DNA of 49,030 nt, from assembly GCA_045863235.1 (NCBI GenBank), contig BTUM01000059.1, positions 1 to 49,030 of the forward strand. The letters are read 5' to 3'. The notes beneath the pieces were generated by a model. That model saw only the letters and a list, made by a program, of their open reading frames with translations. It was not told the origin of the DNA and made no database searches. The position numbers and the translations under genes are program-made. Below are positions 25,520 through 29,939 of the stretch, one piece after another (position 1 is the first letter of the stretch; each line of letters begins with the position of its first letter). The stretch comes from Candidatus Xenobia bacterium. GTDB lineage: Bacteria; Vulcanimicrobiota; Xenobia; Xenobiales; QWHO01.

Positions 25520-27391
25520 TCAGGCCGCGATAGCCTGTTGGGGCTGAGGCTGAGGCTGGGCGGTCGGCGGTGCGGCCGGGGGGGCCGGGGGGGCCGGAGG
25601 CGCCGCCTGGGGCGGCGGCAATGCCGGCTTGTAAGTGGCCGCCGCAGCCAGCTTCTCATCCACCGTACGACTCCGGTTCTGATGATTGTTGACAATGGCT
25701 TTTCCGGTATTCACGGCCATGCGTCCCAGCGCCAGGGCCAGCACGCCCTGCGAAACGACCTGAAGGGCCGGGTTCATCGTACCCGTGAGCAGCGCACCGC
25801 AGGTGAGGGCGGTGCCCACGCCGATAGCCGTGTCGATGGCCCCGTCCACGATGAGATGGCGCCGATTGGCGGCCGGTGAATCGTCGCGACGGATGCCTTC
25901 GACGATCTTGCTGACGCCCGAGTGGGTGCGCAGTGCCGCGCCCACGGCGCCGGCAGCCACGGCCACCACGCCGGGAATGGGCAGCAGGTATGGGAAGCTC
26001 ATCAGCGGGTACCAGTTCAGGCCTGCGGCCGCAGTGGCGCCCGCGGCCGCATCCATGGCAAACTGGTAGCCGTAGAGACGGGAGATCTGCCCGAAGCTCA
26101 TCATACTGCGCGAGAGTTTGGGATAGCGGCCGAGCAGGTCGTCATCCTTGGCGATCGACTTGAGCATCTTCTCCCAGTTGGAGTTGTTCGAGCCACCGGC
26201 CCAGCTGGTGTTCTCGTAACCGTGGGTGCCGCCCACGGGAACGCCCTCCACCGGACTCTTGCCTTCGCGGTCAAAGCCATAGTCGGTGGGCAGGTAGGCC
26301 GACAGGCCCGTAGAGCCCTCCATCGAGCGGCCGACCATTCCGTTCGTCACCGAATGGTGCTCGGCCACCACAGCGTTGCCGAGCTGCTGCTTGATGGCCT
26401 CGGCCGCCTGGCGTACGTCGGCCGGGAAGCGCTCGTCCTTGGCCACCACCTTGGCGAAATCTCCCAGGTCGCGATAGTCGACATAGGGCTCGATGTGAGC
26501 CTCGATGTTGGCATAGTGTTGAGCTTGCTTGATATCCTTGCGCAACACGTCAACCAGCGAAGCATCCTGGCCGATAGCGCTGAGCATCTTGCCGGCGAAA
26601 TCCTCGCAAGCGTTGCGGATGCCCTCAGCGTGAGAGAGGTCTACGGCCGACTGGGTGGGGGTGAAGAGCGAGGTTCCGAACTGATGCTTGGACTCGTAGA
26701 CGAACAGCTGCGCGATCTCTTCGGCGCTCAGGTCGCGGCCTTTCTGGTAGGCCTGCTGGCAGTCCTCGATCACCTTGTGCTGGGGGGTGGTTCCGAACAA
26801 CCCCGGAATGGGAATGCGCAAACCCGCCTCGACCTCTTCCGAGCCGACCATATACTTGGCTACGTTGCGATACTCGTAGGCCACCTCGGCCTGGTTCATC
26901 AGGCAAGCGTTGAAGTTGATGACATCCAACTTCTGCCCGGTGTTCTGCTGGGCGCGCTCGAGCGCGGCCGCCAGGTCCTTGTTCTGACAGATCGAGCCGG
27001 CCTCATCGTCGGTCAGGATGCCTTTGAAGCCGGCTCCGTGATTCCATAGCACCAGCACGGTCTTCTCGGCCGGATAGGTGCGCATGCCCCACTCCACAAA
27101 GTCCTGCACCGACTGGGGGCTGCCCATGTCGACGTTACCGCGGTTCTCAAACGAACTCGTGCTGGCCCCCTTGGTGACCAGGCCGCGAACCACGTCCTCC
27201 TTCATCAAGCCGAGCTCGGCCACGACATTGACGTTGTCATCCGAGCCGACTTTGTCGAGAGAGTTGAAGGAGTGCTTGGCCATCGAGGAGAGGTTGTTCT
27301 TGCCGTCGATGAAGTAGAGCACGGTCAGGGCTTTCTTCTGCTGGGGCTTGGCGGTGCCGGTGGTGGCGGCGGGGAGGGGAGTGACCTGCAT
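25520..27391 (-). CDS. clostripain-family (C11) cysteine peptidase with C-terminal hydrophobic helices
   Basis: DGKNNL, LWNHGAG (His), FNACLM (Cys) and EVAYE motifs. Confidence 0.9.
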   Translation of the reverse strand: MQVTPLPAATTGTAKPQQKKALTVLYFIDGKNNLSSMAKHSFNSLDKVGSDDNVNVVAELGLMKEDVVRGLVTKGASTSSFENRGNVDMGSPQSVQDFVEWGMRTYPAEKTVLVLWNHGAGFKGILTDDEAGSICQNKDLAAALERAQQNTGQKLDVINFNACLMNQAEVAYEYRNVAKYMVGSEEVEAGLRIPIPGLFGTTPQHKVIEDCQQAYQKGRDLSAEEIAQLFVYESKHQFGTSLFTPTQSAVDLSHAEGIRNACEDFAGKMLSAIGQDASLVDVLRKDIKQAQHYANIEAHIEPYVDYRDLGDFAKVVAKDERFPADVRQAAEAIKQQLGNAVVAEHHSVTNGMVGRSMEGSTGLSAYLPTDYGFDREGKSPVEGVPVGGTHGYENTSWAGGSNNSNWEKMLKSIAKDDDLLGRYPKLSRSMMSFGQISRLYGYQFAMDAAAGATAAAGLNWYPLMSFPYLLPIPGVVAVAAGAVGAALRTHSGVSKIVEGIRRDDSPAANRRHLIVDGAIDTAIGVGTALTCGALLTGTMNPALQVVSQGVLALALGRMAVNTGKAIVNNHQNRSRTVDEKLAAAATYKPALPPPQAAPPAPPAPPAAPPTAQPQPQPQQAIAA

Positions 27392-27569
27392 CGTCTGGTG
27401 GTTCCCTTCGCTAGCTGGATTTTGTTCTATTTTCTCTGAGGGACATTATGCCGTTGCGCGTGACCGGGGGGGTGAATGAGTTGTAAACGTCGGCCCAGGC
27501 GCCCTGAAACAAGCCTGAATAGCCGATTTTCCGTGGTTCTGAACCCTCTTTGCGAACAAGAATTTGGGG

Positions 27570-27598
27570 TTGACACCACCTCGGGGGCGGGCTATATT
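27570..27598 (+). promoter_or_regulatory. sigma70 promoter driving the RNA array
   Basis: TTGACA (27570-27575), 17-nt spacer, TATATT (27593-27598). Predicted +1 near 27605-27606. Confidence 0.85.
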
Positions 27599-27605
27599 GA
27601 GCCCC

Positions 27606-28858
27606 GTCGACGGCAACGTCGGCCGAACCGGTGGGCGAAACAACCGGCGCTCCGGCGTAGCGATACAGCCGGCGGGCTGCCAGAGACCGATACCTGGCAG
27701 GGGTAACGTTCTAACCACAGTGACGTCGCAGTATCTCGGCTGCGGTCAAAACCGAGGTGGGCCCGAGGCCCTTCCGGAATCGCGAGAGGAAGTAACGACG
27801 ACGGTCGTTCTCCGGAGCAGGGGAGAATCGGGTGAAGCTCGATGAGGATGGAGTCGAGACCTGTTGGGCGCGAGCCCGACCGCCCCGGCGAGCGAGAGAG
27901 CCGGCGCATCGGGGAGGCGTTAGACCCGGCGGGCTGTCAGAGACCGTAATCTGGCAGGGGTAGCGTGCAGACCACAGAACGCCGCAATGCCTCGGTTGCG
28001 AGAACCCCGAGGTGGGCCTGGGACGAAGAACGGGACCGCGAGGTATCAAGCACGATCTGATCGTGCCCCGTCGTAGTCGAACCAGGGTGGTTCGGTGTGG
28101 TTGGAGCCGAACGACGCTGAGCAGCCTGGCTGCCTCAGCCGCACCGGGAAGCGAAAGAACCGGCGCTCCGAGTGGCGTCAAACTCGGCGGGCTGTCAGAG
28201 ACCGTGACCTGGCAGGGGTAGCGTGCAGACCTCAGATACGTCGCAGTGTCTCGGCTGCGAGAACACCGAGGTGGGCCTGGGAACGAACGCGGGACCGCGA
28301 GGGTAAGCAGTGGGTGAAACCACCCCCGCCGTAGTTGCACCAGGAATGACCGGTGAGGATGGAGCCGGTCGCCAACCTGACGGTTGGCCGCCCTGTCGAG
28401 CGTGATCGACAGCGCACCGGGAAGCGAGAGAACCGGCGGTCTGTCGGAGACCGATACCCGACAGGGGTAACGTGCAGACCAGAGCACGTCGCAGAGCGAC
28501 GGCTGCGTTAAGAAGCCGACGCACCCGCCCGGAGGCGCCCGTGAGACGTCCTCAAGAATGGGTCGGGTACGTGCTGCAGCAGAGATGCTCAGCCGCTCCG
28601 GCAAGCGTGAGAGCCGGAACACCGAGAGGTTCTACTCTCGGCGGGCTGCCAGAGACCGAAACCTGGCAGGGGTAGCGTGCCGACCACAGTTACGCCGCGG
28701 TGTCTCGACCGTGACAACCTCGAGGCGGGCCTGGGACCGGTTGCGGAACCGCGAGGGTGAGCGTGATGGGAAGTCACCTCCGCGACTTGAGTCGAACCAG
28801 GAGAGTCCGGTGTGGCGGAGCCGGACCGCAGAGCCACCCTTGAGGTGGCTTTTGTGTT
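27606..28858 (+). ncRNA. tandem array of five structured RNA units (unassigned family)
   Basis: Five copies of the core CTGYCRG-AGACCGWNAY-CYGRCAG-GGGTARCGT at 27677, 27934, 28192, 28441 and 28646. Compensatory stem changes between copies, promoter and terminator flanks, no credible ORF. Confidence 0.85.
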
Positions 28859-28860
28859 TT
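28832..28860 (+). terminator. intrinsic terminator closing the RNA array
   Basis: AGCCACC-CTTGA-GGTGGCT followed by TTTGTGTTTT. Confidence 0.85.
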
Positions 28861-28862
28861 AT

Positions 28863-29939
28863 TCAGTCGTCTCGGGAAAAGAGCTCGAGTTGCACGGGAG
28901 CGTTGGGGTCCGAAAGCCCTGAGACACCGACCCCGACCAGCCGGACGGCACGATCAGGGAACTCCGTCCGACTCTCGAGCAATCGGCTGGCCAGGGCGAA
29001 AATCTCGTCCGCCTCACTGACCGGGCGACCCGGGGTATGGCTCCGGGTCACCGTGGCGAAGTCGTGGTAGCGAAGCTTCAATACCACCGTGCGGGCCTGC
29101 GCGCCCAGGCTAGCAAGCCGTTCGGCCACCTCGGCCGACTGAGCGGCCAATTGCTGGAGAACCGGCTCGGGTGAATTCTGGTCAACCGCAAAGGTCGTCT
29201 CGGCGGAGATCGACTTGGCGTCCCGATCAGGTTCCACGGGCCGCTCGTCGCGGCCGTGAGCCAACATCCAGAACTCGTAGCCAGCGCGACCGAACCGCGC
29301 CTGGAGCCACTCAGGCTGGCAGGCGGCGACCTGGCCGATACGAGTCAGGCCCAGTTCGCGAAATCGTGCCGCCGTAACCGGGCCGACCCCCCAGAGGCGC
29401 TCGACCGGGAGCGGCTCGAGAAAGCCCTCCACCTGCTCGGGCGCCACGATCACCAGCCCGTTCGGTTTGCGCAGGTCGGAGGCCACTTTGGCCACGAACT
29501 TACAGGGAGCTCCGCCGGCCGACGAGGTCAAATCCACCGCTCGAGCCAGGTCAGCCTTGATGGCCTGGGCCACCACCGCCAGGCGTTCACCCTTTCGCTG
29601 GCAATACTCGGTCAGGTCAAGGTAGCACTCATCCAGGGCCAGCGGCTCGACCAGGGGAGTGTAGCTCAAGAAGATGGAGCGAATCTGGCGAGAGACCTGC
29701 GCGTAATGCTCGTGTCGAGGGGGCACCCGGATCGCTTCTGGGCAGAGTCGCAAGGCGGTGCGGGTGGGCATGGCCGAACGCACTCCGAATTGTCGAGCTT
29801 CGTACGAGGCAGCTGCCACCACCCCTCGACCCTGCTCGCTCCCGGCCACGATGACCGGCTTTCCTCTGAGCTCGGGAGCATCCCGCTGCTCGACGGACGC
29901 ATAGAAGGCATCCATGTCCACGTGCAGGATTCTTCTCAG
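28863..29939 (-). CDS. dinB: DNA polymerase IV (probable CTG start)
   Basis: RRILHVDMDAFYASVEQ, ASYEARQFGVRSAMP, LALDECYLD, AKVASDLRKPNG and LWGVG motifs. Confidence 0.95.
   Translation of the reverse strand: MRRILHVDMDAFYASVEQRDAPELRGKPVIVAGSEQGRGVVAAASYEARQFGVRSAMPTRTALRLCPEAIRVPPRHEHYAQVSRQIRSIFLSYTPLVEPLALDECYLDLTEYCQRKGERLAVVAQAIKADLARAVDLTSSAGGAPCKFVAKVASDLRKPNGLVIVAPEQVEGFLEPLPVERLWGVGPVTAARFRELGLTRIGQVAACQPEWLQARFGRAGYEFWMLAHGRDERPVEPDRDAKSISAETTFAVDQNSPEPVLQQLAAQSAEVAERLASLGAQARTVVLKLRYHDFATVTRSHTPGRPVSEADEIFALASRLLESRTEFPDRAVRLVGVGVSGLSDPNAPVQLELFSRDD

Follow-up and report, generated by a model that had tools for sequence, protein, structure and literature searches.

A tandem-module RNA gene with covarying and candidate pseudoknots in a Candidatus Xenobia bacterium and its relatives

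The stretch of DNA considered here, referred to below as the window, comprises 49,030 nt of contig BTUM01000059.1 from the genome of a Candidatus Xenobia bacterium (assembly GCA_045863235.1). Between a divergent gene for a clostripain-family peptidase (25520-27391, minus strand) and a convergent impB/mucB/samB (DinB-like) gene (28863-29921, minus strand) lies a 1.3-kb stretch in which no credible coding frame was found. On its plus strand, this stretch holds an RNA gene that runs from promoter to terminator (27570-28862), comprises five tandem modules and gives a transcript of about 1.2 kb, in which each module is predicted to fold into a series of small pseudoknots.

The five modules, or units, follow each other head to tail with start-to-start spacings of 257, 258, 249, and 205 nt. 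This register was set by a repeat search together with nhmmer; Tandem Repeats Finder reported just 1.9 copies with a 258-nt period. The units share a core of 89 nt with 61 to 78% identity to the reference copy. Units 1, 2, 3, and 5 are long (around 257 nt), while the short unit 4, at 200 nt, has no 3′ part, with neither the 3′ domain nor the hairpin named H7; in unit 1, the middle part is divergent, and H7 is retained. Our annotation gives nine helices per unit and 205 base pairs over the five units, and a position check by script showed that 203 of these pairs form in the window, the exceptions being one of the three pairs of the first stem (S1) of motif A in unit 1 and one of the seven pairs of the second stem (S2) of pseudoknot D in unit 4, which is an A.A mismatch. 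The complementary strands listed in a first-pass annotation, which had been made by a model from the letters of the window, were all found in their places, both by eye and by the same script.

The signals that delimit the gene are repeated elsewhere in the genome. The paralogous loci carry from one to at least five modules each, and where their ends are assembled they show a TTGACA-type promoter, a 5′ hairpin capped by a GNRA loop, and a terminator nearly identical to the one at 28830-28862. For instance, a counterpart of the 5′-terminal hairpin, with a GCGA loop, opens the arrays on contigs C6, C23, C43, and C79, and every paralogous locus with upstream DNA at hand carries the TTGACA-type box. 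Tracts rich in A/T, of the same kind as the one in the window, also lie 5′ of the -35 box at paralogous loci; in the promoters of stable RNAs, such tracts act as UP elements, and a similar role is plausible here. Both in the window (27554-27605) and at the paralogous loci, the A/T tract and the promoter are followed by a G+C-rich stretch before the start, in a genome of 65 to 70% G+C. This layout, with an UP element and a discriminator, is of the rRNA type, which fits the very high depth of this RNA in public data.

The evidence for the fold comes from 106 to 148 related modules, depending on the test, which were taken from genomes and metagenomes and aligned with a covariance model (R1) made from 32 modules. 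Because R1 holds nested helices only, with no pseudoknot pair, the alignments are not fitted to the knots. On alignment A2 (108 matches, 106 distinct modules), 90.1% of the cells of all seven helices are paired, and double-sided changes occur in 32 of the 36 pairs, including 6 of 6 in H2 (86.8% of cells paired), 6 of 7 in H3 (98.7%), 5 of 5 in S2 of knot C (95.8%), and 5 of 5 in S1 of knot D (90.3%). On this alignment, the nested helices behave as genuine RNA helices. Many U-G pairs are also present (for example, 25 in H3 and 34 in S2 of knot D), which fits the plus strand, since the minus strand would have C.A mismatches in their place.

The best supported of the knots is pseudoknot D, which we consider almost certainly real. 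Its S2, in which the hairpin loop pairs with a downstream strand, is paired in 81.0% of the cells of A2 and shows double-sided changes in 7 of 7 pairs; the 72 double-change cells compare with 22.7±5.8 in shuffled alignments, and none of 500 shuffles reaches the score. When the register is slid by one to three columns, only 28.7 to 49.2% of the cells are paired. A separate script found 133 distinct combinations of loop and partner among 209 modules, such as GCGACA/UGUCGU, CUAUAC/GUGUAG, AUCACGG/CUGUGAU, and GACGACG/CGUCGUC, and the longest complement of a loop averages 5.34 nt in its own downstream strand versus 4.30 nt in the strands of other modules. The knot has an S1 of 5 bp and an S2 of 7 bp; L1 is 1 nt long, L2 is absent, and L3 is A-rich with 6 to 8 nt. 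It shows the pairing of a loop with a downstream strand, the spanning loops, and the compensatory changes of a classical H-type pseudoknot. The first-pass annotation had described it in unit 1 as CGCAG (27727-27731) paired with CTGCG (27740-27744), with the loop CTCGG (27735-27739) paired with CCGAG (27752-27756), and had pointed to compensatory changes among the units; both statements hold, and the second helix grows to 7 bp (27733-27739/27752-27758). In unit 4, two pairs of this knot differ at both bases in the orthologous array of another genome of the genus (G004) and still pair there. A pairing of the H3 loop with the D loop (GAGAC/GUCUC) was also considered and rejected by eye, as the H3 loop is unchanged where the D loop differs (unit 4) and is wholly different in other lineages. 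As a separate observation, some metagenomic modules of other lineages (for example, L074, L078, L118, and L124) have a conserved insert, AGCGAAUCGAAAGCA, in the linker of knot D, which resembles the loop of motif A/B, as if that motif had moved into the knot.

Knot C is very probably real as well, in a register slightly different from the one first proposed. The initial suggestion was a third knot in which GGT/ACC interlocks with CGT/ACG, and both complementarities are indeed present in every unit. The GGU/ACC register is paired in 97.7 to 98.4% of the cells with no double-sided changes, and in 5 of 74 sequences its U-A pair does not form. What does covary lies one nucleotide earlier: the first base 3′ of H3, a G, switches together with the last C of ACC. 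Among 265 modules, GGGGU..ACC is found in 247, GAGGU..ACU in 14, GAGGU..ACC in 1, and GGGGU..ACU in none. On alignment A4, this pair is G-C in 58 modules, A-U in 14, and unpaired in none, and its 14 double-change cells compare with 2.6±1.3 in shuffles (0 of 500 reach the score). For five of the 14 A-U modules, the most similar module is of the G-C form and not of the A-U form, and thus the switch probably arose several times. The two registers could be accommodated together if a G were bulged and the conserved U-A pair came after it.

Upstream of these elements, each module carries one or two copies of a motif of 24 to 25 nt, designed as CGC, 1 nt, a stem strand of 4 to 6 bp, 1 to 3 nt, GCG, 4 to 6 purine-rich nt, and the second stem strand. 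In the window, every unit has both A and B, which gives ten copies, eight with CGC/GCG, one with AAC/GUU (B of unit 5), and one imperfect (A of unit 1). The S1 pairing of B, in which the upstream triplet pairs with the loop, is found in 79.0% of the cells of A2 versus 72.2±1.3% in shuffled alignments, with 13 double-change cells versus 4.7±2.0 (0 of 500 shuffles). The corresponding values are 64.5 versus 51.8±2.0% and 41 versus 25.0±3.6 cells on A3, and 68.2 versus 53.4±2.6% and 19 versus 9.6±2.3 cells on A4; these two alignments are noisier because both include modules with another 5′ hairpin. In a fixed-geometry test for which hairpins were chosen blind to the candidate pairs, 74 of 125 hairpins form all three pairs. 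Among those other than CGC/GCG, 11 of 62 are fully paired versus 3.8±1.6 after shuffling, with a maximum of 9 in 1000 shuffles. The fully paired variants are CGA/UCG, CGU/ACG, GAC/GUC, AAC/GUU, UGC/GCA, UGC/GCG, and CGC/GUG. Taken together, knots A and B are probable, short of proven. As for the switch proposed for unit 5, GAAC (28617-28620) with GTTC (28629-28632) around CCGAGAG (28622-28628) and CTCTCGG (28635-28641), all of these strands are present, but G28617 is the last base of the motif A stem, so that B is a 3-bp knot with AAC/GUU.

The first-pass annotation spoke of up to three consecutive pseudoknots in each unit. There are up to four, as A precedes B, and they form two groups, A/B and C/D, with H3 between them. 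The 3′ strand of H3 continues unbroken into S1 of knot C, whose two G's pair with the CC of ACC in the next hairpin loop; S2 of C ends one base before S1 of D begins; and S2 of D begins one base past S1 of D and ends right before its 3′ strand. As these strands abut without linkers, they permit two coaxial stacks, one of H3 on S1 of C and another of S2 of C with both stems of D, and we infer that these helices do stack in this manner. The suggestion of a compact fold of stacked pseudoknots therefore agrees with the covariation of D, the one covarying pair of C, and the abutting strands, with the stacking itself as a predicted feature.

Further downstream, three of the five units contain a 3′ domain enclosed by an invariant long-range helix, P5 (CCUGG/CCAGG), within which lie P6, a mini-hairpin, and P7. 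P6 covaries in 3 of 4 pairs, the mini-hairpin CC-GYGA-GG is invariant, and P7 is variable; RNAalifold recovered only H7 and the mini-hairpin in this region, and P5 and P6 were placed manually before their pairs were counted. H7 follows in four of the five units. Its stem covaries in 3 of 6 pairs on alignment A5, while its loop of 10 to 11 nt contains two GG(A) motifs in all of the 22 units aligned. In metagenomic relatives, loops of the H7 type often read GCAGGAGG..., and others have no GGAGG (for example, CUGGAUGUAGG). The coordinates of all these features are collected in Table 1.

Table 1. Features of the five-unit RNA gene, in positions of the window.
Feature	Position	Strand	Details
A/T-rich tract	27554..27565	+	just 5′ of -35 box; putatively UP-element-like
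Sigma-70-type promoter, TTGACA-17-TATATT	27570..27598	+	11/12 matches; 1 site vs 0.1 expected
5′-terminal hairpin, GCAA tetraloop	27606..27623	+	at predicted transcript start; read in the sequence
Unit 1 motif A, mini pseudoknot candidate	27624..27647	+	S1 2/3 pairs
Unit 1 pseudoknot B (candidate)	27648..27672	+	CGC 27648-50 / GCG 27660-62; stem 27652-56/27668-72
Unit 1 hairpin H3	27677..27700	+	7 bp
Unit 1 pseudoknot C	27701..27726	+	GG 27701-02 / CC 27715-16; interlocking stem 27706-10/27722-26
Unit 1 pseudoknot D	27727..27758	+	S1 27727-31/27740-44; S2 27733-39/27752-58; A-rich linker 27745-51
Unit 1 hairpin H7	27838..27858	+	purine-rich loop UGAGGAUGGAG
Unit 2 motif A	27881..27904	+	CGC 27881-83 / GCG 27892-94
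Unit 2 pseudoknot B (candidate)	27905..27929	+	CGC 27905-07 / GCG 27917-19
Unit 2 hairpin H3	27934..27957	+	
Unit 2 pseudoknot C	27958..27982	+	GG 27958-59 / CC 27972-73
Unit 2 pseudoknot D	27983..28013	+	S1 CGCAA/UUGCG; S2 27989-95/28007-13
Unit 2 3′ domain, helix P5	28017..28086	+	CCUGG 28017-21 / CCAGG 28082-86, long-range
Unit 2 3′ domain, inside P5		+	P6 28031-34/28067-70; CC-GCGA-GG mini-hairpin 28036-43; hairpin P7 28051-65
Unit 2 hairpin H7	28090..28112	+	
Unit 3 motif A	28140..28163	+	
Unit 3 pseudoknot B (candidate)	28164..28187	+	CGC 28164-66 / GCG 28175-77; stem 28168-73/28182-87
Unit 3 hairpin H3	28192..28215	+	
Unit 3 pseudoknot C	28216..28241	+	GG 28216-17 / CC 28230-31; stem 28221-25/28237-41
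Unit 3 pseudoknot D	28242..28272	+	S1 28242-46/28255-59; S2 28248-54/28266-72
Unit 3 3′ domain	28276..28344	+	P5, P6, GNRA mini-hairpin 28295-28302, P7
Unit 3 hairpin H7	28348..28370	+	
Unit 4 motifs A and B	28389..28436	+	A 28389-28412, B 28413-28436; both CGC/GCG
Unit 4 hairpin H3 and pseudoknot C	28441..28489	+	H3 28441-64, C 28465-89
Unit 4 pseudoknot D	28490..28522	+	longer linker; S2 28496-502/28516-22, 6/7 pairs
Unit 5 motif A and pseudoknot B (candidate)	28594..28641	+	A 28594-28617; B AAC 28618-20 / GUU 28629-31, stem 28622-27/28636-41
Unit 5 hairpin H3 and pseudoknot C	28646..28695	+	H3 28646-69, C 28670-95
Unit 5 pseudoknot D	28696..28726	+	S1 CGCGG/CCGUG; S2 28702-08/28720-26
Unit 5 3′ domain and hairpin H7	28730..28826	+	3′ domain 28730-28801, H7 28805-28826
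Intrinsic terminator	28830..28862	+	9-bp stem 28830-28852, then U-rich tail

Public data indicate that the array is transcribed. The stretch is contained in 20 of the 24 public runs listed (18 recorded as RNA; 12 studies), from an electrolysis cell, a bioreactor, aquatic habitats, sediment, soil, wetland, and sludge. Contigs assembled from RNA span the array in two studies (1188 nt, 27617-28805; 1205 nt, 27614-28815), a third contig extends to 28838, and with further contigs of 1055 and 1040 nt from two more studies, the unit junctions are bridged in four studies. The contigs start at 27614-27617 and end at 28805-28838, and none reaches upstream of 27602. Given that they bridge all units, the array is not fully cut into single units, although partial cutting is still compatible with the data. 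In runs with contigs on the flanks as well, the depth of the array is 40 to about 10,000 times that of the neighbouring genes, as in X4 (184 versus 2.6), X7 (247 versus 2.5 to 4.6), and X9 (around 17,000 to 77,000 versus 2.7 to 2.8). The picture is that of one uncut RNA of about 1.2 kb at an abundance like that of stable RNAs. It was also observed that 71 to 73% of the words of this RNA occur in four small runs (X11-X13 and X15) that were deposited as a single-organism transcriptome, of an organism here called organism A, with a 1205-nt contig of it at a depth of 17.7 in X11; samples of organism A are thus accompanied by the bacterium or by its very abundant RNA.

The RNA is not restricted to this locus. 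In its own genome (8.36 Mb), nhmmer found 25 unit matches on 9 contigs, and since repeats break assembly, the real number of modules per genome should be greater than 25. No neighbouring gene is common to the five loci compared, which is what one would expect if the RNA gene stands by itself. The unit also occurs in each of the other four genomes of the genus, and the number and order of units (five, with the fourth short) are kept in G001-G004. In G004, the orthologous array is 83% identical; of the 205 pairs, 174 are unchanged, 9 are changed on both sides and kept, 8 are changed on one side and kept, 7 are broken, and 7 are gapped, and substitutions affect 38 of 403 paired positions versus 109 of 677 unpaired ones.

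Beyond the genus, a scan of species representatives with an exact pattern returned 32 stretches, of which 22 also match the unit profile, and the remaining 10, from other phyla, are matches by chance. The records of the 22 are titled Eremiobacteraeota or Vulcanimicrobiota, and in some cases Burkholderiales or Selenomonadaceae, titles that we take to reflect mislabelling or misbinning. For instance, species-representative genomes from the window's own genus (L041, L044, L049, L056, L064, and L066) are titled "uncultured Burkholderiales", a label that looks wrong, as other members of that genus have the title Eremiobacteraeota or Vulcanimicrobiota. With R1, 19 of 151 genomes of the phylum were matched (family f1, 4 of 4; f2, 13 of 16; f5, 1 of 1; f3, none of 19; f15, none of 71). 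The matches fall only in families labelled Eremiobacterota with genomes of 6 to 9.5 Mb, and the stricter filters used in this search may have missed divergent forms. A metagenome scan yielded at least 130 stretches, many on contigs of 1 to 3 kb that consist of modules alone.

Two kinds of variant forms were noticed along the way. In the window's own genome, contigs C13 (123325-123816; L200) and C111 (1-615; L202) carry arrays of short modules of 106 to 111 nt that are limited to H3, knot C, and the D hairpin, S2 of D having no clear partner, and these arrays run into the contig ends. A divergent and apparently single-module relative (L063 and L065, on one 272-kb contig titled Selenomonadaceae, and L037, L070, L080, and L089) keeps the core of knots C and D (GCAGCGUUUCGUCUGA...UCGAAACG) within a different, larger RNA; the title of that one host suggests misbinning or transfer.

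What this RNA does can be considered only by analogy. The strong promoter, the protected 5′ end, the dense knots, the repeated and near-invariant core, the varying number of modules, and the lack of a shared neighbour are the reasons why we think a role as a multivalent decoy or scaffold the most likely one, even though we would put its chance at somewhat less than even. The broader proposal that the abundant five-module RNA is a multivalent docking or decoy RNA for some factor comes close to an even chance. In such a scheme, the abutting helices would stack into a compact and probably nuclease-resistant body; the near-invariant C core, the GG-rich loop of H7, or both would serve as the recognition site, of which one RNA would hold five copies and one genome at least 25; and the RNA would titrate or organise many copies of one factor. 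A far-reaching version of this idea, which we regard as doubtful, would see a new class of cellular RNA in which knotted beads are strung together: a bead would have as many as four knots, a transcript one to five or more beads, and a genome at least 25 of them, with the RNA kept at stable-RNA levels in the large-genome Eremiobacterota. It would act as a global sponge or platform for a regulator other than CsrA, possibly the small ribosomal subunit via Shine-Dalgarno-like H7 loops, and would amount to a master regulatory RNA, in an uncultured phylum, without counterpart among the described families.

Several observations weigh against this interpretation, some at the level of the fold and others at that of the function. 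Minimum free energy (MFE) folding gave z = -0.80 for the plus strand and -1.73 for the minus strand relative to shuffles; MFE stability separates neither the sequence from shuffles nor the two strands, and is uninformative. The second S1 pair of knot C is an invariant G-C without covariation, and the support for this knot is a single covarying pair. For motifs A and B, the moderate covariation of the CGC/GCG pairing is part of a mixed record, as the S1 of only 3 bp is unpaired in 21 to 35% of the cells (21% on A2, more on A3 and A4), and in the G004 orthologue all three changes in S1 of B break the pair as aligned. In addition, the GCG-NNA-G loop can be read as a GNRA tetraloop closed by C-G, and most loops are indeed GC-GAAA-G, GC-GAGA-G, GC-GUGA-G, GC-GUUA-G, or GC-GAUA-G. 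Both motifs could then be simple hairpins with a GC-GNNA-G cap in which the upstream CGC has some other role and no pseudoknot forms. We judge this unlikely, though with some weight, given that loops without GCG get a matching upstream triplet while the GNRA is lost (UCG with CGA, GCA with UGC, and GUU with AAC in unit 5), and that the double-change cells exceed every shuffle on three alignments. The expression data are assembled contigs only, so that depth is a poor measure to which paralogues may add, and the transcript ends and strand are hinted at by these contigs. A search for CsrA (PF02599), which is the classic partner of decoy RNAs made of repeats, gave no match in the window's own genome, which is 97.6% complete; the protein occurs in 5 of the 19 genomes that carry the RNA and in 8 that do not. 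A role as a CsrA decoy was rejected on this phyletic pattern. The H7 loop UGAGGAUGGAG resembles the CsrA site. In two related genomes, incidentally, open frames of 411 and 355 aa contain the CsrA domain (G013:C1:555315-555470 and G015:C177:18055-18210) versus the usual 60 aa or so, possibly fused forms or merely long open frames. Finally, any function would be one assigned by analogy alone.

Other explanations for the modules start from the same features. They could be riboswitch-like pseudoknot aptamers for a small molecule or ion, acting in trans as a sensor or buffer. The C core (GGGGU..ACC in 247 of 265 modules) is near-invariant in the manner of ligand pockets, and an H-type knot with an A-rich linker is a common design of aptamers, known from the preQ1-I, SAM-II, guanidine-III, and fluoride riboswitches. 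However, there is no expression platform or downstream gene, as the terminator faces the convergent dinB-like gene, no Rfam riboswitch family matches even at E values up to 10, and a module of 200 to 258 nt with a three-way domain and H7 far exceeds the needs of a small aptamer, all of which makes this reading unlikely. It is also conceivable, and in our view quite unlikely, that the purine loops of H7 (UGAGGAUGGAG; often AGGAGG in other lineages) act by base-pairing as Shine-Dalgarno mimics and sequester RNA with many pyrimidines, for instance at the 3′ end of 16S rRNA or in C/U-rich small RNAs and mRNAs. The two GG motifs retained in 22 of 22 units while the stem covaries, and the frequent GCAGGAGG... 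of metagenomic loops, would agree with this, but unit 4 and the 108-nt C13/C111 modules lack H7 yet keep the pseudoknot core, and H7 therefore cannot be the sole working part; moreover, the loop is not always GGAGG (e.g., CUGGAUGUAGG), and no target was found, with none having been sought. Alternatively, the modules may behave as an oligomer with covalent links and pack against one another, forming a large particle of defined shape such as those reported for the ROOL, GOLLD, and OLE RNAs. The invariant GNRA mini-hairpin and the GNRA-capped leader hairpins are typical docking elements, and the unit number and order are constant across the genus (G001-G004). Nevertheless, the range from one to at least five modules between loci of one genome is a poor fit to a closed assembly, Rfam gave no match to ROOL, GOLLD, or OLE, and no covariation between units was found, although no systematic search for it was made, so that we hold an architectural role to be very unlikely.

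Two further possibilities carry little weight. Tandem direct pseudoknot repeats behind a single promoter recall type III antitoxins, which are cut by and neutralise an endoribonuclease toxin, but the units are 200 to 258 nt instead of about 36 nt, no gene on the same strand follows, the RNA contigs bridge all junctions, and the nine loci per genome share no neighbour, which makes such a system highly improbable. It is hardly credible that the array is no RNA gene at all but a gene for a repeat protein on the minus strand or a selfish DNA repeat. A frame of 303 aa (27711-28622) is indeed open antisense through units 1 to 5; it belongs to no Pfam family, however, and in G004 it is split into frames of 175, 106, 155, and 128 aa, while the spacings are mostly not multiples of three, and the covariation with G-U pairs, the promoter, and the terminator all fit the plus strand. 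We therefore set this frame aside as an artefact of G+C-rich DNA, of a kind that gene callers may annotate. The multivalent docking or decoy RNA remains the reading that we prefer.

Should this model hold, the RNA would be among the most abundant non-ribosomal transcripts of a widespread group of uncultured bacteria and would belong to no described RNA family. Its unusually dense pseudoknot architecture has natural variation that is already partly "mutated and rescued", and for structural biology it would offer a well-defined target of about 257 nt with testable tertiary pairs. For microbiology, it could provide a handle on regulation in Eremiobacterota, and for metatranscriptomics, it would explain a very deep unannotated signal in RNA data from sludge, bioreactor, sediment, wetland, and soil. 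The novelty concerns the family and the fold, while the mechanism is one that we infer.

Searches against known families support this view of its novelty. Rfam 15, which covers, among others, ROOL, GOLLD, OLE, raiA, 6S, RNase P, and self-cleaving ribozymes, gave no match at the gathering threshold in the 49,030-nt window. At E values up to 10, the region 27400-28950 gave three chance-level matches (E values of 3.4 to 9.4), all at least 28 bits below threshold, and six distant relatives gave none at E values up to 0.1. ARAGORN found no tRNA or tmRNA gene in 27400-29000, and the literature, at the level of listings and abstracts and outside subscription journals, yielded no description of this RNA. 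The layout also differs from that of a riboswitch, with its 5′ leader and expression platform, as the terminator (28830-28852) is followed by a convergent gene and no neighbour is shared elsewhere. The RNA shows none of the tested defining features of tmRNA or riboswitch families, and as regards type III antitoxins, it has neither the repeat length nor the toxin gene.

The initial description had compared the strings of pseudoknots with those of tmRNA, type III antitoxin RNAs, and viral 3′ untranslated regions, and these comparisons hold as likenesses, while membership in the first two groups does not stand. Like tmRNA, with its PK1-PK4 string, this RNA is abundant and stable and contains a series of H-type pseudoknots, but it has no tRNA-like domain (by ARAGORN and by Rfam at E values up to 10) and no tag reading frame, and it is tandem and multi-copy. 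With the ToxI-type antitoxin RNAs of type III toxin-antitoxin systems (PMC3401426), the present RNA shares the tandem direct repeats, the single promoter, and the pseudoknot in each repeat; its units, however, are six to seven times longer than those of ToxI (about 34 to 36 nt), no toxin gene is adjacent or downstream, and RNA that is uncut across all junctions is present among the contigs. A search of the own genome for ToxN (PF13958) gave no match, but the control genomes were silent as well, so that this is no evidence either way. Stacked pseudoknots are also known from viral 3′ untranslated regions, such as the upstream pseudoknot domain of tobamoviruses, which likewise have consecutive small H-type knots with abutting helices able to stack coaxially. 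In contrast, the gene described here is a bacterial chromosomal one with nine loci, no viral context in the window, and no similarity in sequence or to Rfam.

Another parallel in design may be found in CsrB, CsrC, and RsmX, RsmY, and RsmZ, the decoy RNAs of CsrA/RsmA, which are free-standing, strongly expressed, and equipped with their own promoter and terminator, with several paralogues per genome, repeated hairpin modules with GGA-type loops, and the idea of many binding sites per RNA. The GGA motifs in hairpin loops that characterise CsrB and RsmZ are found here in H7, while unit 4, without H7, has none in a comparable loop. Unlike the simple hairpins of those RNAs, the modules described here are 200 to 258 nt long and hold a three-way domain as well as pseudoknots, of which there are up to four, and their most conserved part is the pseudoknot core and not the GGA loop. 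Finally, ROOL, GOLLD, OLE, and the raiA motif are large orphan RNAs of bacteria, and this RNA resembles them in being long, intricately folded, abundant, and lineage-restricted, with a function that is barely known. It has no match to their Rfam models, and in contrast to them, it consists of homologous modules joined in a chain, with more of them at some loci than at others.

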